A stretch of 64,000 nt of DNA from an uncultured bacterium. Its GTDB lineage: Bacteria; Krumholzibacteriota; Krumholzibacteriia; LZORAL124-64-63. This document shows, piece after piece, positions 30,503 through 60,148 of the stretch (the first letter of the stretch is position 1; every line of letters begins with the position of its first letter). A model generated the notes under the pieces. The model was not told the origin of the DNA and did no database searches. It worked only from the letters and a program-made list of their open reading frames with translations. A program made the translations under genes and the position numbers. Location: positions 1,440,001-1,504,000 of the forward strand of contig CAVSGO010000007.1 in NCBI GenBank assembly GCA_963727525.1, read 5' to 3'.

Positions 30503-30516
30503 GGTTCCTCCCCGCG

Positions 30517-31569
30517 CTAGGACGAGAGCGCCAGCGGGCGGTAGATGTCCATCTTCCTCTTCGCAGCGGCGTACGTCTGGTCCATGGCGTAGGCCTGCTT
30601 GAAGAAGTCGTACGCCTTTGCGTACTCGTAGTGGTCGACGTAGTAGAGGCCCTTGGAGTAGAGCGTCGCGGCGTCCAGGTTCTCGCTGCCGTTGGTGTCG
30701 ATCACGGTCTTGGCGGCGGGCGAGATGGCCACGTCCAGCTTATCCGCCAGCTTCTTGACCAGGTCTTCCTCCATCGCGAAGAAGTCGGGTTTGCCCTTCT
30801 CCTCGGCGGTGGCGAGGATCTCCGACGTTTCCACCTTCACGGCCTTCACCATCATGCGGGCCGTCTTCCCATCGAGTTGCATGATGCTCCCGAACACCAT
30901 GATCTGGGCGCCGAGCAGTTTCCCGGCTTTGACGGCCGTGGCCTCGTCGACCATGCCTTCCTGCGACATCATGATCTCCTTCAGCACGAAGTCGATCTTG
31001 TCGCGCTCGACCACCTTGAGATCATCGAGGGCGCGGAAGTCGGACTCGAACGCGTCGCTCAGCCCCTTGGCGAGGAATCCGAGCTCTTCCTGGTACTTGC
31101 CGGTCGAGTAGTTATCGAACTCCATGATCGCGATGGTCCGCACCTGCGGCGACTCCGTGCTTTGGCAGGTCAGTGCGTCGTTGTCCTTGAGGATGGTGTA
31201 CCACTGCTCCCGCAGCGGCTTGACCCAGAAACTCGACGGCAGTTCATCGCGGCAGGGGCCGAGTTCGCGGATCTTCTCGAGATAGGCCCGCGCCTGCCCG
31301 AGGTGCTCGGCGCCCATCGAGTACTGGATCGTGCTCATCGCGGCATAGGCACCGATGCGATCCTCCTTCGAGAGGTCGTCTTGCTTCAGGAGCTGTGCGA
31401 CCATCGCCTGGCTCTTCTCGAGGTCGCCGTCGAAGCACACCTGCAGCGCCGCCGCGACCCGCTCCGAAATCGATTCGCCTGCCTGCGCCGGGCTCGCGGC
31501 CATCAGCATCAGGACCATTGGCACCGCCATCGCCGCCAGATAGGTCATCGCGCGTTTCGTTGTTCTCAT
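30517..31569 (-). CDS. Secreted CsgG/HfaB-domain protein
   Basis: Signal peptide; TIAIMEFDN, LKVVERDKIDFVLKE, VDEATAVKAGKLLGAQ.MVFGS, VKVETSEIL. Confidence 0.88.
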   Translation of the reverse strand: MRTTKRAMTYLAAMAVPMVLMLMAASPAQAGESISERVAAALQVCFDGDLEKSQAMVAQLLKQDDLSKEDRIGAYAAMSTIQYSMGAEHLGQARAYLEKIRELGPCRDELPSSFWVKPLREQWYTILKDNDALTCQSTESPQVRTIAIMEFDNYSTGKYQEELGFLAKGLSDAFESDFRALDDLKVVERDKIDFVLKEIMMSQEGMVDEATAVKAGKLLGAQIMVFGSIMQLDGKTARMMVKAVKVETSEILATAEEKGKPDFFAMEEDLVKKLADKLDVAISPAAKTVIDTNGSENLDAATLYSKGLYYVDHYEYAKAYDFFKQAYAMDQTYAAAKRKMDIYRPLALSS

Positions 31570-31625
31570 GCTCGGCTCCCGCGTTGGAATCCCGTGCGAT
31601 CTCATCACGCATCGTCGCCGACCCG

Positions 31626-33554
31626 TCACTTCCGCGCAAGCGGAACCTTGACGGCGGAATCCATGTCCTTGCTCACGATAACGTCGATCTCGCCGCGCCA
31701 CTGCTCCCCGTCGATGTCCGCCCTGACGGCGAAGGTGTGCTTGCCGGGGCGAAGCTGGACGCGACTCGGCGTCAGCGAGCCGATCGCCTTGCCATCGATC
31801 GAGATATGGGCGCCCGGGATGCCCTGGCCCCCGAAGAGTGCCACGACGGTGACCGGGACCGGACTCACGTCCTCTCCCTGGTCGCCTTCCGAACGGTCCT
31901 GTGACGGTCTGTCGAACGTGAGCCGCCCGAGCTTGCCGGCGACCAGGGTGACGTTCCGTGTGTCCGTGGCCGCCGGGTGGCCGAGATAGCGTACCGAGAC
32001 GACGCGGTCCCCCGGACCGAGCGTCAATGTCGTGTCCCCCCGGACCGTGCCGATCCCGCGGCCATCGACCGTGAGGCGGCCGGGGCTCGCAGGTGGCAGC
32101 GAAATCGCGAGGCGCGCCGTGGCCGGCGGGGGCGGCGGCAGGGCGGCCGCGACGCGGAAGGAATCGACGGTCGACCAGAGCAGGGGTCCGGCGGACAGGG
32201 CTTCTGTCCCGACCCGCCAGTAGTAGGTGCCGGCGGACTCCGGTCGCGCCAGGACGTGGGTGGTGCCGGGACACGCGGCCTGGAACAGAGGCGTCACGAG
32301 GTCGGCGTTGTCCGCCACGACGAGACGATAACCTCTCGCCGCCGCGGAACCGGTCCAGCGGAAGCTCACGAGCGAATCACCGATCACCTCGCCTCGCGGA
32401 GCCAGAACGACGGGCGCCACGGCCCTCGGCTCCGGAGGTTCCGGAGATTTCTGCGGCGTCAGCAGGCGCCACGCGACCACGGCGGCGACCGCGAGCACCG
32501 CGACCACGGCGATCCCCACGCGGAGCCGCACGCGTCCGCCGCCCGCGGCATCCGCCGGCGGCGTCGGGATCGTCGGAGGCGGAGGTGGCGTCGGTGCCTT
32601 CGGTGGCGGCGGCGGTGCCGTCGGCGGCAGCGTGGCCTGCGGCAGCGGGCTCGGATGCAGCACCGCCGGCCCTGGATCCAGCGCTGCATCGGGGTTCAGC
32701 GTTGCCTCGGGATTCAGCACCCCTTGACGGGGCCGGGTCGACGTGCCGGCGCCGGCACGGCCGAGCGCATCGCGCATCGCGGCCGCGGACGGGAAACGTT
32801 GCGCAGGATCCCGGGCGATGGCGCGCGACACCGCGGCTTCGACGTCCGGCGGGATCGCCGGGTTCACCGTCGCCAGCGGGATGAATGTGCCCTCGCGCTT
32901 GGCCTCGAAGATCTCGTAGGTATCCGCACCCTCGAAAGGATACCTGTGGGCAAGCATGTAATAGAGCATCACCCCGACGGCGTAGATGTCGCAGCGGACC
33001 CAGTCGACCGTCTCCGACGTGCGGAATTGCTCCGGCGCCATGTACCGCGGCGAGCCGACCGATGAGCCCACCTGGGTGAGTTCGGGATCCGTCGCCCCCT
33101 TGGCCACGCCGAAGTCGATGATCTTCACCTGGCCGTCGCGCGCGATCATCACATTGGTCGGCTTGATGTCGCGGTGGATCACGCCCTGCCGATGCGCGTA
33201 GTCCAGGATCGTCAGGACGGACTGGACGAGCGCGAGGCTGCGATCCAGGTCCGGCGGCTGGTCGGAGCGGATGAGATCGTCGAGCGTGGGCCCGTCGATG
33301 TACTCCATCGCGATGTAGAAGCGCCCGTTGGCGTCAAAAAAATCCTTGATCTGGCAGACGCCGCTGGTCCCATCGAGCACCGCGAGCTTCTCGGCCTCCA
33401 GCCGAAAGCGCTCGATCATCTGCGGGTCGCACATCTCCTTCAGGACGACGCGCAGGCTCGGGACGTCGCGATGCGCCGCGAGGAATACGGACGCCATGCC
33501 GCCCGCGCCCAGCTTGTGCAGCACGCGATACTTGCCGATGAACTCTTCCACCAT
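31626..33554 (-). CDS. Membrane Hanks-type Ser/Thr kinase with extracytoplasmic Ig/PEGA-like domains
   Basis: LGAGGMASV, VLK, HRDIKPTN, DFG, YMAPE, DIYAVG; Pro-rich linker, TM, PEGA-like (GAHISIDGK..G..TP...L.PG.H). Confidence 0.95.
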   Translation of the reverse strand: MVEEFIGKYRVLHKLGAGGMASVFLAAHRDVPSLRVVLKEMCDPQMIERFRLEAEKLAVLDGTSGVCQIKDFFDANGRFYIAMEYIDGPTLDDLIRSDQPPDLDRSLALVQSVLTILDYAHRQGVIHRDIKPTNVMIARDGQVKIIDFGVAKGATDPELTQVGSSVGSPRYMAPEQFRTSETVDWVRCDIYAVGVMLYYMLAHRYPFEGADTYEIFEAKREGTFIPLATVNPAIPPDVEAAVSRAIARDPAQRFPSAAAMRDALGRAGAGTSTRPRQGVLNPEATLNPDAALDPGPAVLHPSPLPQATLPPTAPPPPPKAPTPPPPPTIPTPPADAAGGGRVRLRVGIAVVAVLAVAAVVAWRLLTPQKSPEPPEPRAVAPVVLAPRGEVIGDSLVSFRWTGSAAARGYRLVVADNADLVTPLFQAACPGTTHVLARPESAGTYYWRVGTEALSAGPLLWSTVDSFRVAAALPPPPPATARLAISLPPASPGRLTVDGRGIGTVRGDTTLTLGPGDRVVSVRYLGHPAATDTRNVTLVAGKLGRLTFDRPSQDRSEGDQGEDVSPVPVTVVALFGGQGIPGAHISIDGKAIGSLTPSRVQLRPGKHTFAVRADIDGEQWRGEIDVIVSKDMDSAVKVPLARK

Positions 33555-45396: not shown

Positions 45397-45401
45397 CTCG
45401 A

Positions 45402-45953
45402 TCACTCCTCGCCTGAAGGTTGCTGGGCTCCGTCGCCCGCCTCGGTCGAGCCTTGCGCCGCCGGATTCGGCGTCGACGCCAGCGCCTGCAGCAGACTCGG
45501 ATCCTTGAGCATCCGCTCGATCAGAGGATAGGTGCCACTCTTCCCATCCATGTAGGTCAGCAGGTTGGACAGTTGCTGGCGAGCATCGAGCAGCTCCTTC
45601 AATGCACCCACCCGCCGGGCCACCGCCGCCGGCGAGAAGTCCTCCATGTTCTCGAAGGTGAGATCGATGCTGAGATTGCCCTCGCCCGTGAGCGTATTCG
45701 GCACCGTGAATGCCACCCGCGGCTTCATCGCCTTCAACCGGTCGTCGAAGTTGTCCACGTCGATGGCGAGGAACTTGCGGCCCGCGACGTCGCCCGGTGG
45801 CTCCTTGGAGCTGCCCGAAAGGTCTGCCATGACGCCCATGACGAAGGGCAACTGGACCCTCTTCTCGGCTCCATAGGTCTCGACGTCATATTCGATCTGC
45901 ACCCGGGGGGCACGATTCCTCCCGATAAATTTCTGACTGCTAGGTTTCGCCAC
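45402..45953 (-). CDS. tssB: T6SS sheath small subunit TssB (VipA)
   Basis: RAPRVQIEYDVE, LPFVMGVMADLSG, DNFD, F..MEDFSP. Confidence 0.98.
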   Translation of the reverse strand: MAKPSSQKFIGRNRAPRVQIEYDVETYGAEKRVQLPFVMGVMADLSGSSKEPPGDVAGRKFLAIDVDNFDDRLKAMKPRVAFTVPNTLTGEGNLSIDLTFENMEDFSPAAVARRVGALKELLDARQQLSNLLTYMDGKSGTYPLIERMLKDPSLLQALASTPNPAAQGSTEAGDGAQQPSGEE

Positions 45954-47225: not shown

Positions 47226-48653
47226 TCAGTCGCCTCGCAGAGATACGCCGGTGCCTGCAAGAGTTTGCAAGGTCGCAACCGAGATTGCGGCGCGATCCTT
47301 GTGGCTACATAGCGGGATCAATCCCCGCGAGACGAGTCCCTGGATCGCGCGCTCACTCAACCACACCTCGGCACAAGGCTGCATGATCCTGGTCCCGTCG
47401 TGGTCATGCACGGAGAGCGGAAAGCCGTCGAGCGTGAGTTGATCGCGCGGTGTCGATACAGTCGCCATTGCGTGGCGCCGCACGAGCATGAGCGCACAGA
47501 CGTGCGCCGGATTGCCCCACAGGAATGACGTGTGCACCGGAGCCCCGGGCATCTCGTCGAAGGGAAAGGCATCGATCGGATCGGTGCCCGGACCATACGG
47601 CAACCGAAGCAATGCCCGGGGCCAGGCGAGGCCCACGCCGGCCGCTTCGGGGGCCCGGCGCAGCGATTCCCAGTCGGTCTGGAGCGTGACTTCCGGAGCG
47701 GCCCACAGCGCGTCATCCAGCCGCGCCTCGCGCGGCGAGAAACCCACCACCGCAGGATCGGCGGCCGCCAGGAAGACGCTGCCGACCCGCGCTGCGATGG
47801 CCCCGAGGCCCCGCAGGAGGAATACGTCCTCGTCGCTGTCGCCGAAAGCGTAATCGCCGATCACGAGCGACCAGCCGCGCGCACCATGCACCTCGACCTC
47901 GGGCGCGATGATGCGACGATACAGGTTGGCCTCGTCCAGGTGCCCCGAAACGGCGCGCAGATCGTCGCACAGTTCGGCCTTCGTCACGTCGCAGATCACC
48001 ACCTCGTGCTCGTCCCCGTCGTCCAGGTTCTGCACGAGCCAGGCCAGGCTCCGCCAGGTGGCCTCCACCGCCTGGAACGCGGGGTGATGCAGGATCGCGC
48101 GCATGCGGTCGGCGATCGCGCGGTCGCAGGCGGCGTCGCTGGCGTGCTGTCCGGGATCCGGAGCGGGCGCGACATGCGGTGCCACGATCTCGCGGATCAT
48201 GCGGTCCACGGGCGTGGACGGCGGGTCGTCGCCGGATTCGCGGGGCTCCCCCAGGAGCCGTGCCAGGGTCTCGGCATCGCCCTCGCCGGACACGGACCGA
48301 TCGCGCCCATCGTCGCGGCATCGTTGCAAGGCCGTGAAATCGCCCACCTGGTCGCGGAGTGCGTCGGGGTGGAAATCGTCCATTGCCGCGATGGCGATCG
48401 TGGTCGCGGGTTCGGTGGGATCCGCGGGCTCCAGCCTGATGCGGGGCGCCAGGCGCGCCATCAGCTCGTCGATGCCCAGGACATCCACCGGATGGAGCAT
48501 CGGTACCGTCGGGGCGGCCGCGTTACTGCCCGTGCCACGCCCGCGAAAATCGCCGAGTACGAGGATGCGCCCCGGCGCCTCATCCCGCTGCCGACTCCGC
48601 GCAGCGGGTCCCGGGCGTCCGAACGTGAAGCGAAATTCCGAATCGTCCCTCAT
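47226..48653 (-). CDS. TssB-TssC fusion paralogue (sheath-like protein, C-terminally shortened)
   Basis: N-terminal ILVLGDF.G, MDDFHPDAL (TssB-like) followed by ILHHPAFQAVEATWRSL, GDY.F, W.SLR, PR.LLRLPYG, WGN (TssC-like). Confidence 0.85.
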   Translation of the reverse strand: MRDDSEFRFTFGRPGPAARSRQRDEAPGRILVLGDFRGRGTGSNAAAPTVPMLHPVDVLGIDELMARLAPRIRLEPADPTEPATTIAIAAMDDFHPDALRDQVGDFTALQRCRDDGRDRSVSGEGDAETLARLLGEPRESGDDPPSTPVDRMIREIVAPHVAPAPDPGQHASDAACDRAIADRMRAILHHPAFQAVEATWRSLAWLVQNLDDGDEHEVVICDVTKAELCDDLRAVSGHLDEANLYRRIIAPEVEVHGARGWSLVIGDYAFGDSDEDVFLLRGLGAIAARVGSVFLAAADPAVVGFSPREARLDDALWAAPEVTLQTDWESLRRAPEAAGVGLAWPRALLRLPYGPGTDPIDAFPFDEMPGAPVHTSFLWGNPAHVCALMLVRRHAMATVSTPRDQLTLDGFPLSVHDHDGTRIMQPCAEVWLSERAIQGLVSRGLIPLCSHKDRAAISVATLQTLAGTGVSLRGD

Positions 48654-48664
48654 CGCGTGACCTC

Positions 48665-49651
48665 TCAGGCTCCACTGGCCCAGCGCAGGTAGTCCTCGAG
48701 ACTCGCCGACGGCGACTCGAGCACCGCACGCAGATCGGGCGCCATCCTCGCCTCCGGGGGCTGCGTGCCGTAGGGGCGATCGAGATAGCTTATCGATTCC
48801 AGGCTGGTTTGCGCATCGAGCAGGCTGACCCAGTGACTGCCCAGCGGACGCGACTGGAAGTAGAAATAGTGGCCGCGGTCCGCATCCGCCTCCGACGTCA
48901 TGCGCACACTCCAGATCCGGGACAGCGCGCGGCCAAGGTATCGCTCCGTGAGGTCGAGCCAGAAACAGCTCTCCCGCCCCCCGGCGTCCCCGATCGCGTG
49001 CGCGAGGGGATAGCGAAGTCCGCCCCGGAACGCGCGCGCGTCGCCACGCTTGGCCGGCGCGAGCGTCTCGACGAGAGCCTGGAACACCGTGAACGCCCTG
49101 CTGGCGTCCGCCGCGCCGGCGTCACCGCACAAGGCTGCGGGATCGACCCGCGTGGCCACGTATTGCCGGTAACCGCCAAGGAGCACAGCGTCATCCGGTC
49201 GCGGCAGCGCCGCCAGCGACTGCATGCGCCCACGCAGATCGGCCCGCGTTTCGCTTCCCACGATCGCCGCGAGCGAGCCTGCGATCTGCTCCTGCAGCGC
49301 ACTCATCCGCAGCATGTTCAGCACCGCCGATGACGCCCCGCCGCGCACGCTGGCAAACACCGCGAACGGGTGCTTGCGACCCGCGGCATCGCCGCTCGGA
49401 CAGATCACGCCCGCGAGCCGGCGGTCGTCGCCGACCTCCCACAGAAACCGCAACCACGGGAAGTCCATCAGCCGCCGATCGCAATCCTGGCCGAATCGCG
49501 CCTTCGCCAGCCCGATCCCTTCGCCGATCCACAGGTCGAACTGGGATTCGCCGAACCCCGGGGCATCCTCGACGATGAACTCGCGGCTCAGCGGCAGCTT
49601 GCCGAAGCAACCGAAACCCATGATCTCGTAAGCTGCGCCACCGGGACTCAT
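48665..49651 (-). CDS. tagF: T6SS-associated TagF-like protein
   Basis: GCFGKLP...EFI, GV..PS.D..GR..PF; ATGA overlap with the tssM stop. Confidence 0.85.
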   Translation of the reverse strand: MSPGGAAYEIMGFGCFGKLPLSREFIVEDAPGFGESQFDLWIGEGIGLAKARFGQDCDRRLMDFPWLRFLWEVGDDRRLAGVICPSGDAAGRKHPFAVFASVRGGASSAVLNMLRMSALQEQIAGSLAAIVGSETRADLRGRMQSLAALPRPDDAVLLGGYRQYVATRVDPAALCGDAGAADASRAFTVFQALVETLAPAKRGDARAFRGGLRYPLAHAIGDAGGRESCFWLDLTERYLGRALSRIWSVRMTSEADADRGHYFYFQSRPLGSHWVSLLDAQTSLESISYLDRPYGTQPPEARMAPDLRAVLESPSASLEDYLRWASGA

Positions 49652-52600
49652 TGGGATACCGACTCCTGGATCGAGAACGAGCGAAATATCGAGCCGCGCA
49701 GGAAGAACGGATCCACGTCCTCGAACGGCGTGAGCGTGAACTCGACCGCAACGCCCTGATCGGGGAACGTCCACGTCACCACCCGGACAGCGTTCTGCGC
49801 GTCGATCTGGTCGGCAGCATCGAAGAGCTTGCAGATGTCCCAGACCGACTCCTTGAACTGGAGACTCGCCACCGTTTCCGGCGGGTTCGAGCGCTGTAGC
49901 GCCAGCCCGCACGTCAGATCCGGATCGTCGCTGCGCCAGGTGTAGCTCTTCTCCCTCTTATTCATGTAGTCGACCAGCTCGCCGCCGTTGATCGTCAGCA
50001 CGACCTTGTCGATCTTCCGCCAATTCGCGTCGCCCCGCGGGGTGCCATCGGAGCGAACCCCGCGCGCCATGAGGGTGAAGCGCGCCTGGAATCCGCTGTC
50101 CGTCATCCGGAGGTCTTTCTGGAGGTCCTGCGCCTTCTCGATGACGGCGTTGGCCCGGCGCCCCGGATTGCCGCCGTTGCCGACCATGAAGCTGTGGAAC
50201 GCGGCCATCTTGCCGTTCGGCCCGAGGAGCCCGATCACGTCCATGGGATCGGCGTTCTTGCCGCCGATACGGAAGGGGTAATACGGTGCAAGCTGCTCCG
50301 CGTAGAGACGATACGTGTCGGTCCAGTGCTGTTGCAGGTCGCGTTGCCGGGCGCTGCGCGAGTGCGCCACGATCACACGACTCGCGGTATCCAGCGGCGT
50401 CTCCAGCAACCCGGAGATGGCGGCGGCGAGCTGGCCCTTGCGATCGGCCTCGAAGTTCTCCACCCAATTCTTGGCGTCGAGCACGGCGTTCTGTTTCGGC
50501 GTGGTGCCACCTTCCTTGCAGGCGTAAACCTCGCTCTGCACGTCGGCGAGCAGGTCGCCGTATTTGCCGGCCGGCGTCTGCTCACTGCCCTCGGGGCTCG
50601 CGAACAGCGTCGTCAGCGGTTCGAGCTGCTTGGCGATGCTCTTGATCGCCTCCGGTTGCGTCGCGCCCTTGTCCAGGCCGCCCGCCAGCGGATCGGCCGC
50701 CGACGCCGCCTGGCGCAGCATACGGAAGAGCGGCGACTCGGAGGTCGACTTCAGCTTGCGCAGGTCCTGATCGTAGTCGTCGCAGCTCTCATAGCTCCTC
50801 GCCAGACGCACGGAATCGAGGAAGCGCGTCCACTCCTGGACATAGCCCACCATGTACAGGCTCAGCAGATCGTCTGCGGACGGAACGCGGCCCGTGGGCT
50901 CCCCGCCAGCGAGCGTGATGATCGCGTTGTCCGCGTCGACGGTGTCCTTGACGTTGCGGATCTCCCGCCCCACGTACTCTCGCCACCCGTCGCGCGAGTA
51001 GCCGAAGCGCACGTCCTCGCTCGCCGCGAGGATGTCCTGGCCCGGAACCAGCGCCGACAGCGTGAGGTCGTCCTGCTCCTGGCTCGCCCCGACGATGATG
51101 CCCCGGAAGAACTCCTGCGTCTCGTGGGTGTCGCTGAGTCGACGCGCACCGCGCCCGAGTTCGCGCGACCGTTCGAGACCCGGCAACGGCCGCTCGAGTG
51201 CGAGAAATTCGGCCGCCATGGCCTTCAGCTCCCGATCGATCGCCTTGCTACTCTCCTGACCATTCAGGATGTAGGGTCGCAGGCCGGCGGCCAGGTCGGC
51301 GGCGTCCCAGCCGATCGCGTCGTGCTTCGCGGGCATCAGGAGCATCAGCTCGGTCCGCAGCGCGCTACGCACCTTGCTGGCCGGCAGCCCTCCGGACCCA
51401 TCGAGATCGCTGGCGATCGCGCGCTCCGCCGGTCCGAGGATGCGTTCCGTGATGGCCCGGTAGTAGACGTCCTGTGCCGCGCGATGGACCGCATCCGTCA
51501 CGATCAGGGGGAACGACCGCCATGACCCCTGGATCCGCTCACGCAGGGTATCCAGACGCGTGAGTTCCTCCACGGGTGTCGCCTGCGAGGAGGGCTCCAT
51601 CAACTCCTCGGCGATGTGCTGCGTGCGGTCCATCCGCGTCCGTAGCCGCACGTAGGAGGTGCCGATCCACACGCACCCGAGGAGGCCGAGCGCGAGGAAC
51701 CCCGCCGACACGAACAGAGCGAGCCGCGACCGTTTGCGCGCTGACACGCTGGTCAGCCGCACGAGGTCGCGATCGGTCTTCAGAACCTTGGCAAACAGGT
51801 CGCGGACGAAGTACGCATCGTCCTTCGGCTCCTGCTCGGCGACCGCAGACGCATCCGCCCGGGCGCCCAGCATCTCGTGGATCTTGCGTACGACCAGATC
51901 GAACGGCTTGCCCTCCTGCATGCCGCTCGAGAAGTAGGTGCCCCGGAAGATCGGCACGTCGCGACGATAGGGATTGGCCTCGAACAGGGTCTCGACGAAA
52001 AGGACCAGCCGATCCTTGAGATTGCCGTACTCCTCGGGAAACATGAAGACCCGGCCCCAGTTCTCGCTTCGCGAGACCGCGGACATGCGGCCCGGGCGCA
52101 TGGCCCGCAGATTCGCGATCAGCAGGTCGAACTCGCCGGCAAACCGTACCGCCGCATCCTGATCACCCTCCGGCTTCGGCGTGTAGACCGCGCCCCAGAC
52201 CTGGTAGCGATCGACCGGCGACAGGCGCTCGAAGTATTCCGCGAATCCCGCAACCAGGTCGCACTTGGTGAAGAGCACGTAGACCGGGAAATTCCAGCCG
52301 AGACGGTCGAGGATCTCGTCCATGCGCTGACGCAGGTCGCGCGCGCTGTTGATGAGAGCCATCTCGTCCTTCTCGTACAGATCCTCCATGCTGTAGGCGA
52401 GAATGAGCCCGTCGATCGGCCCGTGCTTACGATATGTCTTCAGCATGTCGAGGAACGCGAACCACTCGGCCTCGGTCTCGCTACGATCCACACCCTCGGC
52501 GTATCGGCCGGCGGTATCGAGCAGGATGGCGTCGGAGGAGAACCACCAGTCGCAGTTGCGCGTCCCACCGGAGCCCCGCATCAGCTTCGCCGTCGTCATG

Positions 52601-53037
52601 CCGGGAAAGTTGAGGCCGGAGTTCTTGATCGCCGTGGTCTTGCCGATGGCCGGCGGACCGATGATCAGGTACCACGGCAGGGTATAGAGCGCCTTCTTGC
52701 CCTGCGGGCCCTGCTTCAGGAGCGCCAGCGCCTCCGCGAGATTGCGCTGCAGAGCTTCCACGTTGGATCGGTTCGCCGGCGCGGCCTGCTCGACGCCCGC
52801 CTGGGCCTGGCCCATGATCCCGTCCTCGATCGCCTTGGCGCGCCGCCGTTCCACCATCCACTTCACACCGAGGAACACGGCCCAGGCCACGATCACGACG
52901 ACGACGGCCAGCACGATGGCCCAGCGCGGGATCACGCGCAGGAAGGGGAACCGCGCCCGCGCCATCATGAGGGCGATGACGATGACCAGGAGCACTCCGA
53001 AGGGAGCGAGGGTCTTCTTGAGGATCGCGAAGAACAT
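49648..53037 (-). CDS. tssM: T6SS membrane complex TssM (IcmF)
   Basis: LYTLPWYLIIG...GKTT, TRNCDWWF, LLDTAGRY, FPVYVLFTKCDL.AGF.EYF, RG.YF.S..Q.G. Confidence 0.96.
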   Translation of the reverse strand: MFFAILKKTLAPFGVLLVIVIALMMARARFPFLRVIPRWAIVLAVVVVIVAWAVFLGVKWMVERRRAKAIEDGIMGQAQAGVEQAAPANRSNVEALQRNLAEALALLKQGPQGKKALYTLPWYLIIGPPAIGKTTAIKNSGLNFPGMTTAKLMRGSGGTRNCDWWFSSDAILLDTAGRYAEGVDRSETEAEWFAFLDMLKTYRKHGPIDGLILAYSMEDLYEKDEMALINSARDLRQRMDEILDRLGWNFPVYVLFTKCDLVAGFAEYFERLSPVDRYQVWGAVYTPKPEGDQDAAVRFAGEFDLLIANLRAMRPGRMSAVSRSENWGRVFMFPEEYGNLKDRLVLFVETLFEANPYRRDVPIFRGTYFSSGMQEGKPFDLVVRKIHEMLGARADASAVAEQEPKDDAYFVRDLFAKVLKTDRDLVRLTSVSARKRSRLALFVSAGFLALGLLGCVWIGTSYVRLRTRMDRTQHIAEELMEPSSQATPVEELTRLDTLRERIQGSWRSFPLIVTDAVHRAAQDVYYRAITERILGPAERAIASDLDGSGGLPASKVRSALRTELMLLMPAKHDAIGWDAADLAAGLRPYILNGQESSKAIDRELKAMAAEFLALERPLPGLERSRELGRGARRLSDTHETQEFFRGIIVGASQEQDDLTLSALVPGQDILAASEDVRFGYSRDGWREYVGREIRNVKDTVDADNAIITLAGGEPTGRVPSADDLLSLYMVGYVQEWTRFLDSVRLARSYESCDDYDQDLRKLKSTSESPLFRMLRQAASAADPLAGGLDKGATQPEAIKSIAKQLEPLTTLFASPEGSEQTPAGKYGDLLADVQSEVYACKEGGTTPKQNAVLDAKNWVENFEADRKGQLAAAISGLLETPLDTASRVIVAHSRSARQRDLQQHWTDTYRLYAEQLAPYYPFRIGGKNADPMDVIGLLGPNGKMAAFHSFMVGNGGNPGRRANAVIEKAQDLQKDLRMTDSGFQARFTLMARGVRSDGTPRGDANWRKIDKVVLTINGGELVDYMNKREKSYTWRSDDPDLTCGLALQRSNPPETVASLQFKESVWDICKLFDAADQIDAQNAVRVVTWTFPDQGVAVEFTLTPFEDVDPFFLRGSIFRSFSIQESVSQ

Positions 53038-53038
53038 C

Positions 53039-53719
53039 CTAATCCCCCCCCAGCGCCCGTACGATGTGCGCCGCGTGCCGGTCCAGCAGGTTCCAGCTCA
53101 GGAGCCAGAGCACGATCGGCACGAGTACGGAAACGAGCACCACCGCGGGCCAGGGAAACCGTTTGATCGGCTGCAGGCGTCCGCCCTCGGGCACTGGCAG
53201 CCCGTCCGGCGCAAGGACGGACATCCGGGTGCCGATCTCGTGGGACAGCTCGTTGACGAGGTCGGCGTGCTCGCGTTCGGATTCGATGAGGCGCCCCCGG
53301 AAACCGGAGATCAGGCAGTAGTAGAACACCTCCACGACCTCGAGACGAGGCGGCACCGCCCGGCGCACTTCCGCGAGCTTGTCGAAGAAGCCGTCGCCGA
53401 CGAACTCGTCGTTGCAGTAGTGCTTGGCCAGAGCATCCGCCTGCCATTCGCCGCGACCGTTCCACGTCGCCGTGAGCAACGTCTCGTCGATGAAGGCCGC
53501 CATGGCGTAGCTTGCGTCGCGGATGTCGTCATCAGCCACACCCTCGTCGCGAGCCTGGCTGCGAAACTCGTGGAACATCCGATCGACGGATCGCCGCAGA
53601 TCGGGGAAGCCGTCGAGATCGTGGCTGCGCTTGAGGACGATCGCCAGGGAGAGGAGCGAGGCCGCACTCCGGGCTAGCCGGCCCTGCCGCTGTACGTCGC
53701 GCTGTGGAGTCGAACTCAT
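53039..53719 (-). CDS. tssL: T6SS membrane protein TssL (DotU) without OmpA domain
   Basis: YA..AF.DE, W....L, G..FF..L, EV.Y.CL..GF.G, C-terminal TM. Confidence 0.93.
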   Translation of the reverse strand: MSSTPQRDVQRQGRLARSAASLLSLAIVLKRSHDLDGFPDLRRSVDRMFHEFRSQARDEGVADDDIRDASYAMAAFIDETLLTATWNGRGEWQADALAKHYCNDEFVGDGFFDKLAEVRRAVPPRLEVVEVFYYCLISGFRGRLIESEREHADLVNELSHEIGTRMSVLAPDGLPVPEGGRLQPIKRFPWPAVVLVSVLVPIVLWLLSWNLLDRHAAHIVRALGGD

Positions 53720-55104
53720 GCGCCTCCCTCCAGCCCGAGCAGCTCGAACTGCGCTGCCAGGAGATTCCGCGGGATGTCCATCGCCAGCGCTCGGCCCGCC
53801 GCGATGGCTTCCCAGTCCTTCTGCGCCTCGGCCGTGCTGCCGCGGGTGTCGAGCTGATAGTACCACGTGTTCCGGCGGCGCGGGATCGCCGGCGGCGGCA
53901 CCGTCACCAGCTGCAGCGGCAGTCCGCGCAGATTCATGCTGAGCTTCTGCTCGATTCGATCTGGACTCGCCACGATGATGCGCTTCGCGCTCTCCAGGAC
54001 ATCGCGTTCCCCGATGCTCTCGCTAGCGATCGAGAGATAGAGCCCCGCCGTGGGTTGCAGGAGCGCGTCCTTCTCGATCTGCGCCTGGAATCGGCCCTCG
54101 CCCGTCGTCGTGAGCGGGATCACGACATAGCCGTGGCTCGCCCCGCTCTCCAGCAGCTCCACGATCATCCGCTGCAGTTCCGCGAAGACCGGCCCCGCAT
54201 CCTCGTGCACGTACGCGGGCACGTCGCGCGGATGCATGCGGCGCGCATTGAACGTCGCGAGCTGCCCCACGAGGCCGGCGAGCGTCCGGTAGAGCTGCTC
54301 CGGATGGGCGGCCGGCGTCTCCCGCAGATGCGCGAGATGCGGGATGGCGCCGTTGACCACGAGGAACCGCAGGAACTCCCGGAGATTGGCCGGCGTGATG
54401 TCGCGCCCATCGGCGCCACCCTCCGTGAAGCGCTCCGCCAGGCCGGAGGAGCGCACCACCAACCGCTCGAGCAGCGCCCGCGTCAGATGCACCAGATGCG
54501 CCGAGCCTTCGATCGCGAGCAGCGGCGGCACGTAGTCATCGACGAGCTGAAAGCCGCCGGCGGCGCTCTTCGCCACCCGAGCGATGCGCAGGCACTCGAA
54601 ATTGTCGCGCGACTCGACGCCCGTGAGCAGACGGAGGTTCAGCTCCGCGCGCTGGATCGTCCGCTCGTCGCGTCCGGTGTTCTCGTCCTCGATCGCGAAA
54701 GCCTTGGCGAGGTAGCGCACCTCGGCTCGATCCTCGGAGGCATCCTCGGCGAGCCGGCAGTTCGGCCAGCCGGTGCGCCGCAGGGGCAGGCCGAGATACA
54801 CGTCGAGAGAGTCCATCCGTAAATCGAAGGAATCCCGTATGTCGATGCTCGGCGGCGCCGGATCGATGTCTGGAAAGCACACCGAGGTCCCGCCGGGCAT
54901 CACGCCGCGGCACGAGAGCACGCGCAACGTACCCGAGGCCAGGCCCTCGGGATCGATCTCCAGCGAGCGCACGCCCCACGGATGGGGAGAACCCAGCGCC
55001 GCCCGCTCCGCCAGCTCGTATTGCTGGAAGAGCCCGGCCTGCTGGAAGTGATGGGGCGTGAGAAAGAGTCCCTCGCTCCAGAGAATCCGATGGAACCGAG
55101 CCAT
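53716..55104 (-). CDS. tssK: T6SS baseplate TssK
   Basis: W.EGLFL.PHHFQQ, WG...L.ID, G.MP.G, YVPP.L, HPE.LY..L..L.G.L.TF, Y.H. Confidence 0.96.
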   Translation of the reverse strand: MARFHRILWSEGLFLTPHHFQQAGLFQQYELAERAALGSPHPWGVRSLEIDPEGLASGTLRVLSCRGVMPGGTSVCFPDIDPAPPSIDIRDSFDLRMDSLDVYLGLPLRRTGWPNCRLAEDASEDRAEVRYLAKAFAIEDENTGRDERTIQRAELNLRLLTGVESRDNFECLRIARVAKSAAGGFQLVDDYVPPLLAIEGSAHLVHLTRALLERLVVRSSGLAERFTEGGADGRDITPANLREFLRFLVVNGAIPHLAHLRETPAAHPEQLYRTLAGLVGQLATFNARRMHPRDVPAYVHEDAGPVFAELQRMIVELLESGASHGYVVIPLTTTGEGRFQAQIEKDALLQPTAGLYLSIASESIGERDVLESAKRIIVASPDRIEQKLSMNLRGLPLQLVTVPPPAIPRRRNTWYYQLDTRGSTAEAQKDWEAIAAGRALAMDIPRNLLAAQFELLGLEGGA

Positions 55105-55152: not shown

Positions 55153-55614
55153 TCAGTCCTGGGTCACCACGATGCAATCGTCGAGCACCCTCACGCCGAT
55201 CTTCAGCTTGGCGCCGTCCTCGACCGGAATCTTGGTGCGCGCGCAGGGTTTGGCGTCGGCAAAACCCGCGGCGATGACGATCCACCGGATCTGCGGGTCG
55301 TAGTTGCTCATGTCGATCATATGCGCCTGATCACCTGGATAGAGCGGGAACACTTCCTTGTGGACGATGCCCGGCTGCGAGACGCCGTTCGGGTCGGCGA
55401 GCTGGATGTTGTCGATGTTGTTGAGTGCGGATTCCTGGCTGAGGAAATAGGCACCGACCCAGGCCGGCTGGTTCAGATCCGCAGGTCGATCCAGGTTGAT
55501 GCGGATGTAACGGCCGCCACACCCGGCCAGCCCCAGCAGGCAGACGCCAAGCAGGCAGAGTCGAAGCCGACACGCGGCCGCACGACGCCCCTCATTCATA
55601 CTGACTCCCGGCAT
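55153..55614 (-). CDS. Lipoprotein in the tssJ position, probable divergent TssJ
   Basis: Lipobox LAGC; DLN...V..Y.L, L.PG, R.I.I.A.F pattern; TGATG coupling to the upstream gene; precedes tssK. Confidence 0.65.
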   Translation of the reverse strand: MPGVSMNEGRRAAACRLRLCLLGVCLLGLAGCGGRYIRINLDRPADLNQPAWVGAYFLSQESALNNIDNIQLADPNGVSQPGIVHKEVFPLYPGDQAHMIDMSNYDPQIRWIVIAAGFADAKPCARTKIPVEDGAKLKIGVRVLDDCIVVTQD

Positions 55615-56498
55615 CAAGGCTCCTCCTCCATCTTGTCGCGGTAGGCACGCTCGAACCGACCACGGTAGTAATGGTCGATATTGCGATCGAACTGATTCCA
55701 GAACTCCTCGAAGCGTCGTTCCAGCTCCTTGACCATGGCAGGGTACTTCAGGATGCTCGTCTTCGCCGACTTCGGGTCGAGGTGCTCGAGGACTTCGCGG
55801 GTGCCGCCCTTCCACGACTGCTGCGCTCCGGCCATCAGCGCGCCGGGCAGGATCTGCAGCAACCGTAGCTGCCGCTGCACCGCGTCCATCTCCTGCCGGG
55901 AAAGCGCCTCGCCCGCCGCCAGACGGGGCAAGAGTGTCCCCAGGCTCCGCTGCGCATCGCTCGGCGAGCCCTTCCCGACGGTGTCCTGAACGGACCTCGC
56001 CGTCACCTCCTGGTTGAAGGCGAAGGCGAAGAGGAGCACCGCGACATCGACCAACATGCCCTGCGCGGCCGGCGACAGGTCCCTGGTCCGGGGCGCGCCA
56101 GCGCCATCGCGGGACGGCAACGGACCGGCGGCGGCGCCCGCGAGGCGTGCCATGTGGTCGTCGGCGAGGGCCCCCCGTTGCTGGAGCCGGTCGCGTTGCG
56201 CCGTGAGCTGCGCCACCTGGTCCTCGAGCGCGGCCAGGCGCTCCGTCATGTCCTGGTTCGAGCGATCCGTCTCGAAGACCCGGTCGGGGAACCGGTCGCG
56301 CAGCTTGCGCACCAGCTCGTGGATCTCGTCCCGGGTGAGACCCGCCGCATGCTCGTGGATGGCCAGGCGCAGCACAGCCTTGCGCTGGTCCTCGGTTGCG
56401 AACTCGCTGCTCCCCAGGACGGCACGCAGTTTCTGCGCCAGCGACCTGACGGTGAGACCGCGCTCGGCGGCCGTCCGCATTGCTGTCACCGTCTTCAT
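55614..56498 (-). CDS. Coiled-coil protein with Fha/TagH C-terminal-like domain, no FHA domain
   Basis: ALMAG.Q......VL..LDP ... F...AY C-terminal pattern (ALMAGAQQ...LEHLDP...YYRGRFERAY). Confidence 0.6.
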   Translation of the reverse strand: MKTVTAMRTAAERGLTVRSLAQKLRAVLGSSEFATEDQRKAVLRLAIHEHAAGLTRDEIHELVRKLRDRFPDRVFETDRSNQDMTERLAALEDQVAQLTAQRDRLQQRGALADDHMARLAGAAAGPLPSRDGAGAPRTRDLSPAAQGMLVDVAVLLFAFAFNQEVTARSVQDTVGKGSPSDAQRSLGTLLPRLAAGEALSRQEMDAVQRQLRLLQILPGALMAGAQQSWKGGTREVLEHLDPKSAKTSILKYPAMVKELERRFEEFWNQFDRNIDHYYRGRFERAYRDKMEEEP

Positions 56499-58717
56499 CA
56501 CGGCTTGGCCTCCCGGGGTGGGAACACCATCGTCTGGTCGAGATTGTCGGGCATGGTCCGGGTCTGGCCCGACCGGGCGGCTTCCTCGAGGTCGGCGAGG
56601 AAGTCGTCGCACACCGCCTGCACGCTCGCATTTCTACCCGCCGACCCGATCAGCGAACCGCGCGCGCGCTCGGCGAGTTCCTCGAGTTCCTGCACCACCG
56701 TCTGCAACGGTTGCGCCGGGTCGGCCGGATCGAAGTCGTCCTGCGCGCCACAGATGCTCCAGCCCGCCACGTTCGACGCCATGCGCAGGGCGAGCAGGAG
56801 CGCATCATTCCAGAGGCTCGCCGGGATGGCGGCGTCGACGGCGTCGCGATCGATGGCCCGGTACAAGACCTCGCGCGCGCCGGACGCGATCCCGGCCGAC
56901 TGCAGGGCCGCCTGCAGCCGCGCATACTCCGCGCTCACCCCACCGCCGCCCGGGGTGGCCACCGCAACGGCGAGCTCGCCTGCCAGGCGCGTGTCCACCT
57001 GGCTCAGATCCTGACCGTCGTTCGCCAGGAGGACCCGCAGCATCACCAGGCCCAGGCTCATGACGTCGGCCGGCGCCGCGAAGACATGCACCAGGGTCAC
57101 CTCGACGTTGGTCGACGTCGCGAGGTCGGTCGACTTCAACGCGGCGCACGTATCCGCGGACAGGGCGCCCGCCGTGCCGGTGAACCGAAAGCCTCCGGCG
57201 ACCGACGCCGTCTTGCGGCCAGAAAACACGATGCGCTGGTTGGCCGCGGACCCGACCACGAGCACCACGCGCACGAGATCGCGATTTCCATGGTCGGCGG
57301 CGCGATAGAGATCCGGAGCCGTCAGCCGCGCGGTGAACTGCGCGCGCCACTTGCCGGACGTCTCCTTCACATCAAGGTTCTCGAGCGCGAGGCGCATCGA
57401 GAGATGCTCGATCTGCGGCCGCCCCATCGCGGCGGGCAGGTAGGCTTCGGGGCACGGATAGGGAAGCCCGGCGACACCTGGTTCGCCCTCGATGCGATCG
57501 ACATCCAGCTCGAGGGGCCGCGCCGTGGTGAGCAGGTCTGCGATCTCCACCGCCAGCCCCCAGCGCACCGGTACGATGGCCGGACCGGGCAAGAGCCGGG
57601 CGCGCAGACGATCGGGCGTGAGGGCCAGATGCGGGTCGCCCGTCGCCTCCAGCAAGTCCTGCGCGCCGCGCGCGAGATCGGTCATGGCCGCCAGCTTGAG
57701 GTAGAGCGCCTCCAGGGCCGATAGACCGGTGGCGTCGCCCTCGAAGTAGACCTGACGACCGGCCTCCCCGAACGCAGCCAGCGCCTCGCGCCGCAGCGGC
57801 ACGTCGCGCGCGGATTCTCGCGTGGCGTCGTTCAACCCGTCCGGATCGGCACCGCCGAGGAACGCCACCGCCTCGTGGAACCCGAGGGGCGCGGGCTCCA
57901 GGGGAATCCAGTGGAAATCGTAGTAGGCGAGCGGAAAGAGCAGATCCTCCGCCGGCACGCGATCGTCGACGTGACGGTTCGCGGGATAGCACGCCGCCCG
58001 ATGTTCGCACCGGAAGCACGGATGCCGCTCGGCCGCATCCTCGCGCGCCGCCGCTTCGGAACCCGCGATGACGGCACCGAGATCCCGGTACAGCTCCGAT
58101 CGCCGCCGCACCGAGATGCCGTCGGCGATTCGCTCGAACCGCCGCAGCGAGAACGTGTAGAACACGGGCGCGCGGCCCTTCCCCTGGGAGCACGTCGGAC
58201 AGGTCAGGAACCGCACGAGGCCGTTCTCGTACGACGGCAAGCCGCTGCGCCGCAGGAGATTCTCGTCGCGGCAGGTGTGCATGACACCGAGGCACGCCGG
58301 GCAGAGGGGCGTGATGTACGCGCCGGTCTTGCGGCACCACGCCAGCGGCGCATGGCTCGGCAAGTCGCCATCGCTCGCCGAGGCCGGCAAGGCCCGCCTC
58401 TCGAGCTGCGCGACGGAGCGCGATGCGGTGCGCTGGTAGCGGCGGAACCCCTCCCGCCAGATGCGCTCGATGGAGAGGTTTCCGATAGCCGGCGAGCCCG
58501 CGGTACGCGACCCCGGGTACTCGTTCGGCTCCATCAGGATCGTGACGTGCGGCACGAACACCCGACCGTCCACCTCCACCGACGCGAGATAGGCGCGCAG
58601 CGGATGAGCGTCGGCCAGCAGGCGGATGAAGGGATCCGTCGGCATGGACCCATCCGCGGCAGAATCGGCCCGGACGTGCAACCGGATGGGCGAGGGAAAA
58701 TCCTTGTCGGCAGGCAT
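56498..58717 (-). CDS. Uncharacterised Cys-cluster protein with degenerate kinase-like motifs
   Basis: CPAC, CPTC, CFRC..R..C; HLALTP and DVMSLG motifs; GGGAG RBS; coupled to the next gene by TGATG. Confidence 0.75.
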   Translation of the reverse strand: MPADKDFPSPIRLHVRADSAADGSMPTDPFIRLLADAHPLRAYLASVEVDGRVFVPHVTILMEPNEYPGSRTAGSPAIGNLSIERIWREGFRRYQRTASRSVAQLERRALPASASDGDLPSHAPLAWCRKTGAYITPLCPACLGVMHTCRDENLLRRSGLPSYENGLVRFLTCPTCSQGKGRAPVFYTFSLRRFERIADGISVRRRSELYRDLGAVIAGSEAAAREDAAERHPCFRCEHRAACYPANRHVDDRVPAEDLLFPLAYYDFHWIPLEPAPLGFHEAVAFLGGADPDGLNDATRESARDVPLRREALAAFGEAGRQVYFEGDATGLSALEALYLKLAAMTDLARGAQDLLEATGDPHLALTPDRLRARLLPGPAIVPVRWGLAVEIADLLTTARPLELDVDRIEGEPGVAGLPYPCPEAYLPAAMGRPQIEHLSMRLALENLDVKETSGKWRAQFTARLTAPDLYRAADHGNRDLVRVVLVVGSAANQRIVFSGRKTASVAGGFRFTGTAGALSADTCAALKSTDLATSTNVEVTLVHVFAAPADVMSLGLVMLRVLLANDGQDLSQVDTRLAGELAVAVATPGGGGVSAEYARLQAALQSAGIASGAREVLYRAIDRDAVDAAIPASLWNDALLLALRMASNVAGWSICGAQDDFDPADPAQPLQTVVQELEELAERARGSLIGSAGRNASVQAVCDDFLADLEEAARSGQTRTMPDNLDQTMVFPPREAKP

Positions 58718-58880
58718 GGAGCTCCCGGAGATAACGGCACCAAGGCGCATGCGCGCGCAACCGGAGACGGATAGCGAGATTAGAACAAACGAAGACTGGA
58801 CCCGTCAAGGGGCCAGGCGGATCGATGACGGGCGACCCGAAACGGAGCGTCGCGAAGCCAAGCGCGCCATTTCCTGGGAG

Positions 58881-58909
58881 TTGCAACCGCTCCATCGTGG
58901 CGATACACT
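58881..58909 (+). promoter_or_regulatory. Putative sigma-70 promoter of the FHA gene pair
   Basis: TTGCAA-N17-TACACT. Confidence 0.55.
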
Positions 58910-58985
58910 GGGGCGGGGTCGTGTCATGCTCGGGACATCGACGGCATGCACCGCGACGAACGGGTCCACATCAGGGGCGGGTACC

Positions 58986-59609
58986 ATGGACGGTGACGAT
59001 CGCTTCCCCACTCCGCCGTCTCCCCAACGAGACGATCCGGACTCGACCCACGTGAATGCGCCGGGACCGCTGGAACCCGTCGAGCCACCCCAGGCTGCGC
59101 CCGCGGTCCCGCCCGTGCTCGGCGTGGTCGTCATCTATTCCGAAACCCACGAATCGGCGGCCGAGAACGACACGCGGCTCGGCTGCGTGTATCCACTACG
59201 CGAGGGCGAGGTTCTCGCCGTGGGCCGCACTCCGGTCCCGAAGAACGTGACGCGAAGCGACGGCGACACCGTCGCTCCCACCCACCGCCATGTCTTCCCG
59301 CACGGGGAACCATTCCGGTGCGTCTCGCGGTTACACGTCACGATCGAGTTGCAGCCCGGCGGCAAGGCCATCCTGGCGGATCACTCGCGATACGGGATCT
59401 ACCTGGAGAACGCCGAGACCTGGCACCGCCTCCCCGCCACCGAGAAGACGGCCGTGCACACCATCACCGAGCCTGAACATGTGGTGCTCATGGATCTCGA
59501 GGGCAAACCGGCCCGGCCCGACCTCGCCGATCGCCGCAGCCACTACCGCCTCTCGATCCTGCACTTCGCCTGGCTCGGCGCCGGTGCGCGCCAGGAGGCG
59601 CATTCATGA
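58986..59609 (+). CDS. FHA-domain protein
   Basis: Pro-rich N-terminus; VGR, VSRLH, DHSRYG motifs in FHA order. Confidence 0.7.
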   Translation: MDGDDRFPTPPSPQRDDPDSTHVNAPGPLEPVEPPQAAPAVPPVLGVVVIYSETHESAAENDTRLGCVYPLREGEVLAVGRTPVPKNVTRSDGDTVAPTHRHVFPHGEPFRCVSRLHVTIELQPGGKAILADHSRYGIYLENAETWHRLPATEKTAVHTITEPEHVVLMDLEGKPARPDLADRRSHYRLSILHFAWLGAGARQEAHS

Positions 59610-60148
59610 GATGTTCCGCCTGCTATGCCGAGAATCCCCCGTGGGCCACGATCTGCACGGACTGTGGCAAAGCCGTACTGCGCCTCGAGTTCTGCGCGGG
59701 CGGCCACCTCCTGCCGCCCGGAGCCCAGGAATGCCCCGTCTGCCCGCACCTGTGGCCCGAGGTCACCGCATTCGACGGCGCACCTCTCCTGCGGGGGATC
59801 CTCCTGGTTGAGAAGGGGCGGCTGACGAACGCCGACGACCCGGCCGATTACCTGCCCTACGTCGAGATCCGCGATCGCGAGCAACCGCTCGTACTGACGC
59901 ACGCACCCAATGAGCAGGTCACGATCGCCAATGACGACGCCGCCGGAACCTGCCGCGTCCTGATGCGGCCGGAGGGCGTGCAGGTCTGCGGTGCCGGCTT
60001 CGCGCACGAGCACGCGGGCCCACGCGTCTACAAGGCGCTCGGGCCGGACGACACCTTCGTTCTCGGGACCACCACGTTCCGCCACATCGCGTTCGACCCG
60101 CCCGCCTGGTCGGTGAAACTGGCGGAGAGTCGGCACCCGGACGGCTGA
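59606..60148 (+). CDS. Double zinc-ribbon protein with degenerate FHA-like C-terminus
   Basis: CSAC..ENP....CTDCG, C..GH......CPVC; LGPDDTFVLGTTTF final strands; ATGA overlap. Confidence 0.65.
   Translation: MRCSACYAENPPWATICTDCGKAVLRLEFCAGGHLLPPGAQECPVCPHLWPEVTAFDGAPLLRGILLVEKGRLTNADDPADYLPYVEIRDREQPLVLTHAPNEQVTIANDDAAGTCRVLMRPEGVQVCGAGFAHEHAGPRVYKALGPDDTFVLGTTTFRHIAFDPPAWSVKLAESRHPDG

Follow-up and report, generated by a model that had tools for sequence, protein, structure and literature searches.

A putative disassembled Fha/TagH regulator module at a type VI secretion locus of an uncultured Krumholzibacteriota bacterium

Four genes at the upstream end of the cluster

The analyzed DNA (here, the window) is a 64,000-nucleotide stretch of contig CAVSGO010000007.1 (positions 1,440,001 to 1,504,000, forward strand) from the genome assembly of an uncultured bacterium of the Krumholzibacteriota (GenBank GCA_963727525.1), and all positions below are counted from its first letter. 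A complete type VI secretion system (T6SS) cluster of the T6SS-i type was identified with Pfam on its minus strand. The subject of this study is a group of four genes at that cluster's upstream end, called A, B, C and D, which may be a taken-apart form of the T6SS assembly regulator Fha/TagH.

Gene A (56501..58717, minus strand) encodes a soluble kinase-fold protein of 739 amino acids (aa), a predicted pseudokinase, and gene B (55617..56498, minus strand) an FHA-less TagH/Fha homologue of 294 aa, followed in the same operon by tssJ, tssK, tssL, tssM and tagF. The two genes are translationally coupled: the stop codon of A (TGA, 56500-56498) and the start codon of B (ATG, 56498-56496) have one base in common, giving TGATG on the minus strand. 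For A, the start at 58717 was favored over the upstream ATG at 58750 by the alignment of homologues. An earlier note, made from the letters of the window, had placed two coupled, non-standard genes at the head of the tssJKLM-tagF operon; the coordinates, the TGATG junction and the Pfam results bear this out, and neither product reaches a Pfam or NCBIfam cut-off.

Genes C and D are transcribed divergently from A. Gene C (58926, or 58986 if the second ATG is used, to 59609, plus strand) encodes a predicted FHA domain protein of ~207-227 aa, and gene D (59606..60148, plus strand) a protein of 180 aa with a double zinc ribbon followed by a predicted FHA fold. The stop codon of C and the start codon of D overlap as ATGA at 59606-59609, so that this pair is coupled as well. 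The spacer between the starts of A and C (58718..58925, or to 58985 with the second ATG) is 208-268 bp long, depending on the start chosen for C, and promoter and repeat scans found no sigma-70-like promoter and no repeat in it.

No match to A was found in Pfam (E ≤ 0.1), NCBIfam or PDB sequences. Its structure was modeled with AlphaFold2 from an alignment of 16 homologues (42-61% identity), which gave a predicted local distance difference test score (pLDDT) of 78.2 and a predicted template modeling score (pTM) of 0.81. The model was compared with 48,161 chains by VIA-align, a method independent of Foldseek, and kinases or pseudokinases occupied 50/50 top rows (Z 13.2-15.9, model residues ~4-686). 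Among them were IRAK1 (6bfn_B; Z 15.9, root-mean-square deviation 3.2, 271/294 residues aligned), the IRAK3 pseudokinase (Z 15.8) and PknB (Z 14.3). The feature neighbors of A in the ESM Atlas, found independently of the model, were Pkinase clusters (scores 0.92-0.95). A bilobal protein-kinase fold is thus predicted for A. When the same model was compared with PDB by Foldseek, the top rows were helicases and gyrases, and these were set aside as unrelated.

The catalytic positions of A were mapped with a profile hidden Markov model and the order of secondary-structure elements, not by residue-level structural alignment. The reference was the family member P0116, which has a Pfam Pkinase match (E 6.8e-6, 26.1 bits, below the cut-off of 31.7) and the motifs VALK, HLDLKPEN, DLA and DIYSMG. 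Where P0116 has VALKV, HLDLKPEN and IDLA, A has VTILM, HLALTPDR and ADLL: leucine stands at the beta3 Lys, alanine at the catalytic Asp and arginine at the catalytic-loop Asn, with only the DFG-type Asp retained. Where P0116 has DIYSMG, A and its subfamily have PADVMSLG. Every close homologue (P0002-P0019) spanning these columns has the same losses.

A census of the 150 best representatives of the family, 96 of which span all four columns, gave several patterns. The three losses seen in the window (K, D and N) were found in 22/96, and 21/96 lack the catalytic Asp and keep K, N and the DFG-type Asp, as do the fused planctomycete forms P0082, P0089, P0102 and P0115 (see below). All four catalytic residues are retained in 11/96. 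These members (P0116, P0124, P0132, P0163, P0098 and six others) keep VALK, HLDLKPEN and DLA or DLG, and going by these motifs they may be active non-RD kinases. Four of the 11 are 1070-1142 aa long; P0116, the only one scanned, had no Pfam FHA or T6SS_FHA_C match.

A cysteine-rich insert is found at ~aa 120-245 of A, where the model passes from helix C to strand 4. Nine of its cysteines (128, 139, 142, 149, 173, 176, 234, 237 and 243) are invariant in the 16 close homologues, and they are conserved in 72-95 of the 95 representatives that span them; the arrangement looks like two zinc sites. A second, beta-rich insert (~aa 400-545, ~110-150 residues) lies in the activation segment. Most likely, then, A is a pseudokinase with a zinc-type insert, and the label given to it in the earlier note, Zn-finger pseudokinase, is a fair one in view of the kinase fold, the lost catalytic residues and the conserved cysteine cluster. 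The A-type system is not unique to the window, the family of A being large: a profile search of 1.84 billion representatives returned 1072 members at E ≤ 1e-3, of which 312 reach E ≤ 1e-30, and the family thus has at least 1072 clusters at 50% identity.

For B, no significant Pfam match was obtained, no NCBIfam cut-off was reached, and the PDB sequence search returned noise only (E > 0.06). The relationship to TagH was found by profile comparison. The B family was aligned by hhalign with five planctomycete TagH proteins, and the match had a probability of 91% (E 1.1e-6) in local mode and 94% (E 2.3e-8) in global mode, in which residues 1-294 of B correspond to residues 106-417 of TagH. This is the whole part of TagH after its FHA domain, and the two are collinear throughout, with a common motif, L-x-AG-x-Q ... 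LDPK. An alignment of the B family with a single fused protein, P0020, was discarded as too weak (E 0.11). B is predicted to have the layout of a post-FHA helical linker, a coiled coil and a C-terminal domain like T6SS_FHA_C. In the ESM Atlas, 24/30 matches of B fell in a set bearing PF20232, in which only 10% of the members of the named cluster carry PF20232; all 30 matches listed (161-515 aa band, query included) are 249-322 aa long.

No FHA domain was detected in B with Pfam, and its open reading frame (ORF) reaches just 38 codons further upstream; the absence of FHA is therefore the normal state of the B family. From the profile alignments, B is read as a TagH homologue without FHA, encoded beside tssJ and tssK in a T6SS-i cluster with tagF. 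A search of the genome for canonical TagH (PF20232) gave only a chance-level match of 11.6 bits elsewhere.

In C, a low-complexity N-terminus precedes an FHA domain that has a 16-residue insertion. The Pfam FHA match of C itself (E 0.0025, 18.6 bits) is below the cut-off of 20.7; 4/5 members of the C family have an FHA match, the best at E 5.8e-6, and NCBIfam gave no match for C. By hhalign, C was aligned with the FHA domain of TagH at E 3.6e-4, and the GR, S-x-H and S-T-N-G loop positions were matched around the insertion. C has the GR, SRxH and S-x-x-G positions, and all five sequences share the Ser, Arg and His of SRxH. Judged by these residues, C is most likely an FHA protein in which the Arg, Ser and His positions for phosphate binding are retained. 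It is also the only FHA match in the whole genome, in which the Pfam search found no other. The C homologue of a related locus, L004 (630-1274, minus strand), was seen to have its own N-terminal CxxC...CxxC ribbon (weak DZR match, E 0.076; 1/5 members), so either of the two FHA proteins can bear the zinc ribbon.

Residues 1-47 of D form a double zinc ribbon with eight ligands, matched below the cut-off by the Pfam families DZR (E 3.3e-4) and, similarly, Zn_Ribbon_1 (E 4.1e-4). The rest of D had no Pfam FHA match, and an hhalign comparison with the FHA domain of TagH was rejected (E 0.021, last strands only). In its AlphaFold2 model (pLDDT 83.7), FHA or FHA-like domains made up nearly all rows listed by Foldseek (probability up to 0.99) and 50/50 top rows of VIA-align (Z 4.7-7.4, residues 57-167). 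The top VIA-align rows include YscD-type domains of the type III secretion system and the FHA domain of EssC of the type VII secretion system (5fwh_A, Z 4.9). We read ~aa 60-165 of D, on the strength of the model, as a degenerate FHA fold that lacks the canonical phosphate-binding motifs. Of the two divergent FHA-type genes proposed in the earlier note, C is therefore supported by the FHA matches in its family, and D holds at fold level only. The profile comparison agrees with the note for B as well, which matches the C-terminal body of TagH by hhalign: Fha appears to be split at this locus, with the TagH body on B and reader-type domains on C and D.

Related loci and genomes

The neighborhoods of 13 related loci were compared with the window. 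In four of them (L002, L004, L005 and L006), A and B are followed by tssJKLM-tagF, and in five more, all from Planctomycetota, an A-like gene precedes tssK and tssL. These five differ in how the parts are joined. L010, L011 and L012 have a single ORF of 1111-1146 aa in which an A-like part is followed by FHA (E ~1e-19) and T6SS_FHA_C (E ~1e-25), and the proteins P0020, P0082 and P0089 are fusions of the same kind. L008 and L009 have an A-like gene (~731-735 aa), then a complete separate TagH (429-456 aa), and then tssJ. Since in L008 and L009 TagH is flanked by the A-like gene and tssJ, B occupies exactly the TagH slot. The natural fusion of A-like, FHA and T6SS_FHA_C parts elsewhere supports the view that one module is distributed over separate genes in the window. 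The claim of the earlier note that Fha function is spread over four proteins is well supported; the pThr-FHA contacts by which, according to the note, the four would assemble are putative. One observation was made beside these comparisons: the A-like part of one fusion gene (G210:C2:47999-50098; L011/L021/L044) contains one in-frame TGA, and an error in sequencing, a broken gene or recoding may account for it.

The complete order of the window, D and C in one direction and A, B, tssJ, tssK, tssL, tssM and tagF in the other, recurs in L002, L004 and L006, and L007 has D, C and A at the end of a contig. L005 has A-B-tssJKLM-tagF, and C-D are absent from the 3.7 kb upstream; the genes there are BNR and FlgD_ig, which were rejected as C-D counterparts. 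As the genome of L005 holds the pair on another contig, C and D are found in all six genomes with an FHA-less A-B; the two genes are adjacent in 6/6 and lie divergently beside A in 5/6. In the five loci of Planctomycetota in which TagH keeps its FHA domain, no C-D pair was found. The presence of C-D mirrors the absence of FHA from TagH. In two more of the 13 loci, ORFs of 730 aa (L013, 5928-8117) and 763 aa (L014, 9790-12078) match residues ~60-395 of A only and have no Pfam match; they may belong to a T6SS-independent branch of the A family.

The phylum of the window was searched in 208 genomes for A, B, D and TssK, not for C. TssK was found in 22 genomes, A in three, one of which has it on a contig of 1.5 kb, and B and D in two each, always in carriers of A. 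Of the 19 T6SS carriers without A, four were fetched (L015-L018, from G083, G102, G104 and G019). None of A, B, C and D was found at these loci, which have three or four canonical FHA matches beside tssK and, in L016-L018, a Hanks kinase match there too. Regulation by several FHA domains seems to be common in the phylum.

Among 401 sampled Planctomycetota genomes, the A family was found in 25, and TssK in 24/25. A lies on the same contig as tssK and at most 10 kb from it in 18/25 carriers (at most 3 kb in 16), and the two are on different contigs in five. The expected link of the homologues to T6SS loci was thus seen both in nine of the 13 neighborhoods and in most planctomycete carriers.

The surrounding cluster

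The window has a G+C content of ~68%. Downstream of B, all on the minus strand, are tssJ (55153-55599; weak in Pfam, 23.1 bits with a cut-off of 27), tssK (53716-55104; E 1.7e-102), tssL (TssL/DotU, 53039-53866; E 2.1e-38), tssM (49648-53037; E 1e-70) and tagF (TagF_N, 48665-49912; E 1.4e-18). Further genes of the cluster identified with Pfam are TssA, TssC, TagJ/ImpE, TssF, TssG, ClpV, VgrG and a Hanks kinase, together with DUF2169, TPR and CsgG-like lipoprotein genes. Between tagF and tssA lies a TssC-like paralogue of 475 aa (47226-48653, minus strand; VipB E 1.5e-50), whose VipA-like N-terminus is weak (VipA E 1.4e-5). It is extra to the canonical TssC (43903-45405, Pfam), and similar matches were found after tagF in L002, L004, L005 and L006.

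The cluster kinase (31626..33554, minus strand, 642 aa) is of the Hanks Ser/Thr type (Pfam Pkinase E 2.1e-41), and HRD and DFG are intact in its alignment row. The genome has at least 15 Hanks-kinase domains. Two CsgG-like genes (29174-32274, minus strand), one of which also has TPR repeats, are directly downstream of the kinase and possibly provide an envelope-side sensor for it, in a position comparable to that of TagQRST.

The complex of A (residues 10-715) and B was predicted in three runs, which scored 0.47, 0.35 and 0.27 (median 0.35); the best of three controls scored 0.00. Contact agreement was at least 66% and the pLDDT of the partner at least 70. The mark used for such predictions was reached by 58/80 solved complexes and 2/110 mismatched pairs, and at scores of 0.60 or under by just 7/80 solved complexes and by both of the passing mismatches. 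The prediction lends weak support to an A-B complex.

Proposed mechanism, alternatives and significance

Canonical TagH acts at the assembly of the membrane complex. Like TagH/Fha1 (P. aeruginosa PA0081, V. cholerae VCA0112; FHA plus PF20232), B stands in the TagH slot, is collinear with the part after FHA and has tagF in its operon. Unlike TagH/Fha1, it has no FHA and no room for one in its ORF, and FHA-type domains are encoded on two separate, divergent proteins. TagF is described as a factor that sequesters TagH (review PMC13584744). In the pathway of PpkA (TagE) and PppA (TagG), a Hanks kinase, an FHA reader and TagF are present as in the window; A, however, has neither the catalytic residues nor any other Pfam domain, no PP2C was found, and the reader is split from the TagH body. 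Because B lacks FHA, A lacks the catalytic residues and PppA is missing, the system of the window, which would work much as the PpkA-Fha-TagF pathway does, is not a usual member of it.

The planctomycete fusions (L010-L012, P0020, P0082 and P0089) and pairs (L008 and L009) have the same kinase-fold family with a cysteine insert, at the same position heading tssJKLM or tssK. In them, by contrast, FHA is inside TagH, and in most of them the catalytic Asp is the only one of the four residues lost, with the beta3 Lys, Asn and DFG-type Asp still there. In the clade of the window, K, D and N are gone from A and FHA from TagH, and C-D are an addition.

Pairings of a pseudokinase or of a zinc ribbon with FHA domains are found in other systems. 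In mycobacteria, Gee et al. in 2012 reportedly found that the phosphorylated pseudokinase domain of MviN is read by FhaA; the logic proposed below for A and C is the same, with the difference that MviN-FhaA controls cell-wall synthesis and not secretion. The Anabaena protein FraH has a double zinc ribbon and FHA, the same order as in D, in which by contrast the FHA is degenerate. We know of no link between such double-zinc-ribbon FHA proteins and T6SS. In secretion systems of type VIIb (T7SSb), the pseudokinase domain of YukC/EssB binds the degenerate FHA of YukB/EssC independently of phosphorylation (PMC9600267). A pseudokinase is thereby paired with a degenerate FHA in a secretion machine, as may be the case here, but the two systems are unrelated, EssB is membrane-anchored, and the FHA domain is part of an ATPase.

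The region is interpreted as a lineage-specific, disassembled Fha/TagH assembly-regulator module with its reader in trans, in which phosphothreonine would license assembly; a probability of roughly 55% is assigned to this reading. According to it, A would be a non-catalytic kinase-fold scaffold with a probable two-site zinc insert, and B would be the TagH body, with the linker and the TagH C-terminal domain, whose FHA reader has been lost. Coupled translation would yield A and B in a 1:1 ratio, and the two would come together as a cytoplasmic complex where TssJLM and TssK assemble. C would supply a phosphothreonine-competent FHA domain in trans, and D a degenerate FHA tethered to a zinc ribbon, as an adaptor independent of phosphorylation. 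A Ser/Thr kinase, here probably that encoded in the cluster at 31626-33554, would phosphorylate a threonine on A, B or TssL; a candidate site is the nearly invariant T-T directly after the DFG-like Asp of A. C would read the phosphothreonine mark and so license assembly, and TagF would counteract this by holding B. The folds, homologies, loss of catalytic residues, gene order, coupled translation, fusions in relatives and co-occurrence are observed; what we infer from them is which proteins bind, where phosphorylation occurs and in which direction regulation runs.

Several results speak against parts of this interpretation. For A, Foldseek gave no PDB match at E ≤ 1e-3, so that the fold call rests on one aligner and sequence-level motifs, and an hhalign comparison of the A family with 15 kinase domains of the same genome (probability 30%, E 5e-4) was confident at the helix-F motif only, for which reason the catalytic mapping was taken from P0116. 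In B, Pfam T6SS_FHA_C was not detected at E ≤ 1, and PF20232 is touched weakly by only 4/27 relatives of B (best E 0.031). The Arg of GR in C is Lys in 3/5 homologues, and the Asn of its loop is Tyr in the window and in L002. The FHA scores of D are middling, with Z at most 7.4 and a best Foldseek E of 0.047 (none at or below 1e-3), and GR, SxxH and NG were not seen among the invariant residues when the D-family alignment was read by eye. A-B was the only pair modeled, and it passed weakly. As regards gene context, the C-D pair of the L005 genome (G612) is at the end of its contig, not beside A; one planctomycete homologue of A is 480 kb from tssK and one carrier has no tssK; and no T6SS gene was detected beside the A-like N-terminal halves of L013 and L014. 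The enzymes of a phosphorylation switch are also patchy. Of three extended related clusters, one (L051) has a homologue of the cluster kinase over most of its length, L052 has just a distant kinase-domain match, and none was found in the 20 kb fetched of the cluster of the closest relative, L050. No PP2C gene (PF13672, PF00481) was found in the cluster or in the genome, which is 96.67% complete; five SpoIIE-type matches (PF07228) all lie outside the window.

The lack of PP2C, the patchy cluster kinase and the frequent Lys in C make a constitutive pseudokinase-FHA scaffold the main rival. The four proteins would then serve the membrane complex or baseplate as a structural adaptor that needs no phosphorylation, similar to EssB-EssC and with no phosphothreonine switch, and the motif-less D and the phosphorylation-independent precedent of T7SSb (PMC9600267) fit with this. 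We consider it the less likely of the two readings. Against it stand the Ser-Arg-x-His of C, unchanged in 5/5 sequences, all of which have Arg or Lys at the GR position, the intact Hanks kinase both in the window cluster and in L051, and the canonical FHA carried by the fused planctomycete forms. Much less probable is that C and D are general cellular FHA signaling proteins and mere neighbors, with only A and B belonging to the T6SS. C is the sole Pfam-detectable FHA protein in a genome with at least 15 Hanks-kinase domains, and the pair is away from A in G612, which fits. Against this, D is confined in the phylum to two of 208 genomes, both with A and B, although 22 have a T6SS, the pair was present in all six genomes with an FHA-less A-B, and it was not seen at the loci whose TagH still has FHA.

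The least probable alternative, to which we give very little weight, is that A is an atypical active kinase or a nucleotide-dependent switch that replaces or supplements PpkA. The DFG-type Asp of A (D394) is invariant, as are R370, D328, E336 and K341, and the members of the family with all four catalytic residues look active. The beta3 Lys, catalytic Asp and catalytic-loop Asn, however, are replaced throughout the subfamily of A, the alignment of A shows no glycine-rich loop, and the cluster already has a canonical kinase of its own. That A-B might be a pair of effector and immunity protein, or a chaperone pair, was also considered and rejected: the genes are upstream of tssJ, not near vgrG or DUF2169, and the family is fused to TagH in relatives. 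We retain the disassembled Fha/TagH module as the preferred reading. A broader version of it, which we hold only tentatively, is that the Cys/Zn pseudokinase-FHA unit is a widespread, unnamed core accessory of T6SS outside the Proteobacteria, a cytoplasmic platform on which TagH would start the assembly of the membrane complex, convergent with the pseudokinase-FHA logic of T7SSb; in this lineage it would have been split, with the phosphothreonine reader (C) and a zinc-ribbon adaptor (D) working in trans.

In the literature searched (full text, supplements excluded), neither a T6SS pseudokinase nor the four-gene layout was found, and the words pseudokinase, kinase-like and zinc are absent from a 2026 review of T6SS accessory genes (PMC13584744). 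The same review states that it is still unclear how Fha/TagH triggers T6SS assembly. New in the window is the combination of three features: a pseudokinase that is fully degenerate, a TagH lacking FHA, and two stand-alone FHA-type genes that form a conserved divergent pair. The locus separates the reader of TagH from its body and adds a kinase-fold partner that looks obligate and is encoded beside tssK in most of the carriers examined. If the four proteins work together, they would represent an unrecognized family of T6SS accessory proteins and a natural split system in which it could be dissected which part of Fha does what, and the pairing of pseudokinase and FHA known from T7SSb and from the control of the mycobacterial cell wall would be extended to T6SS.

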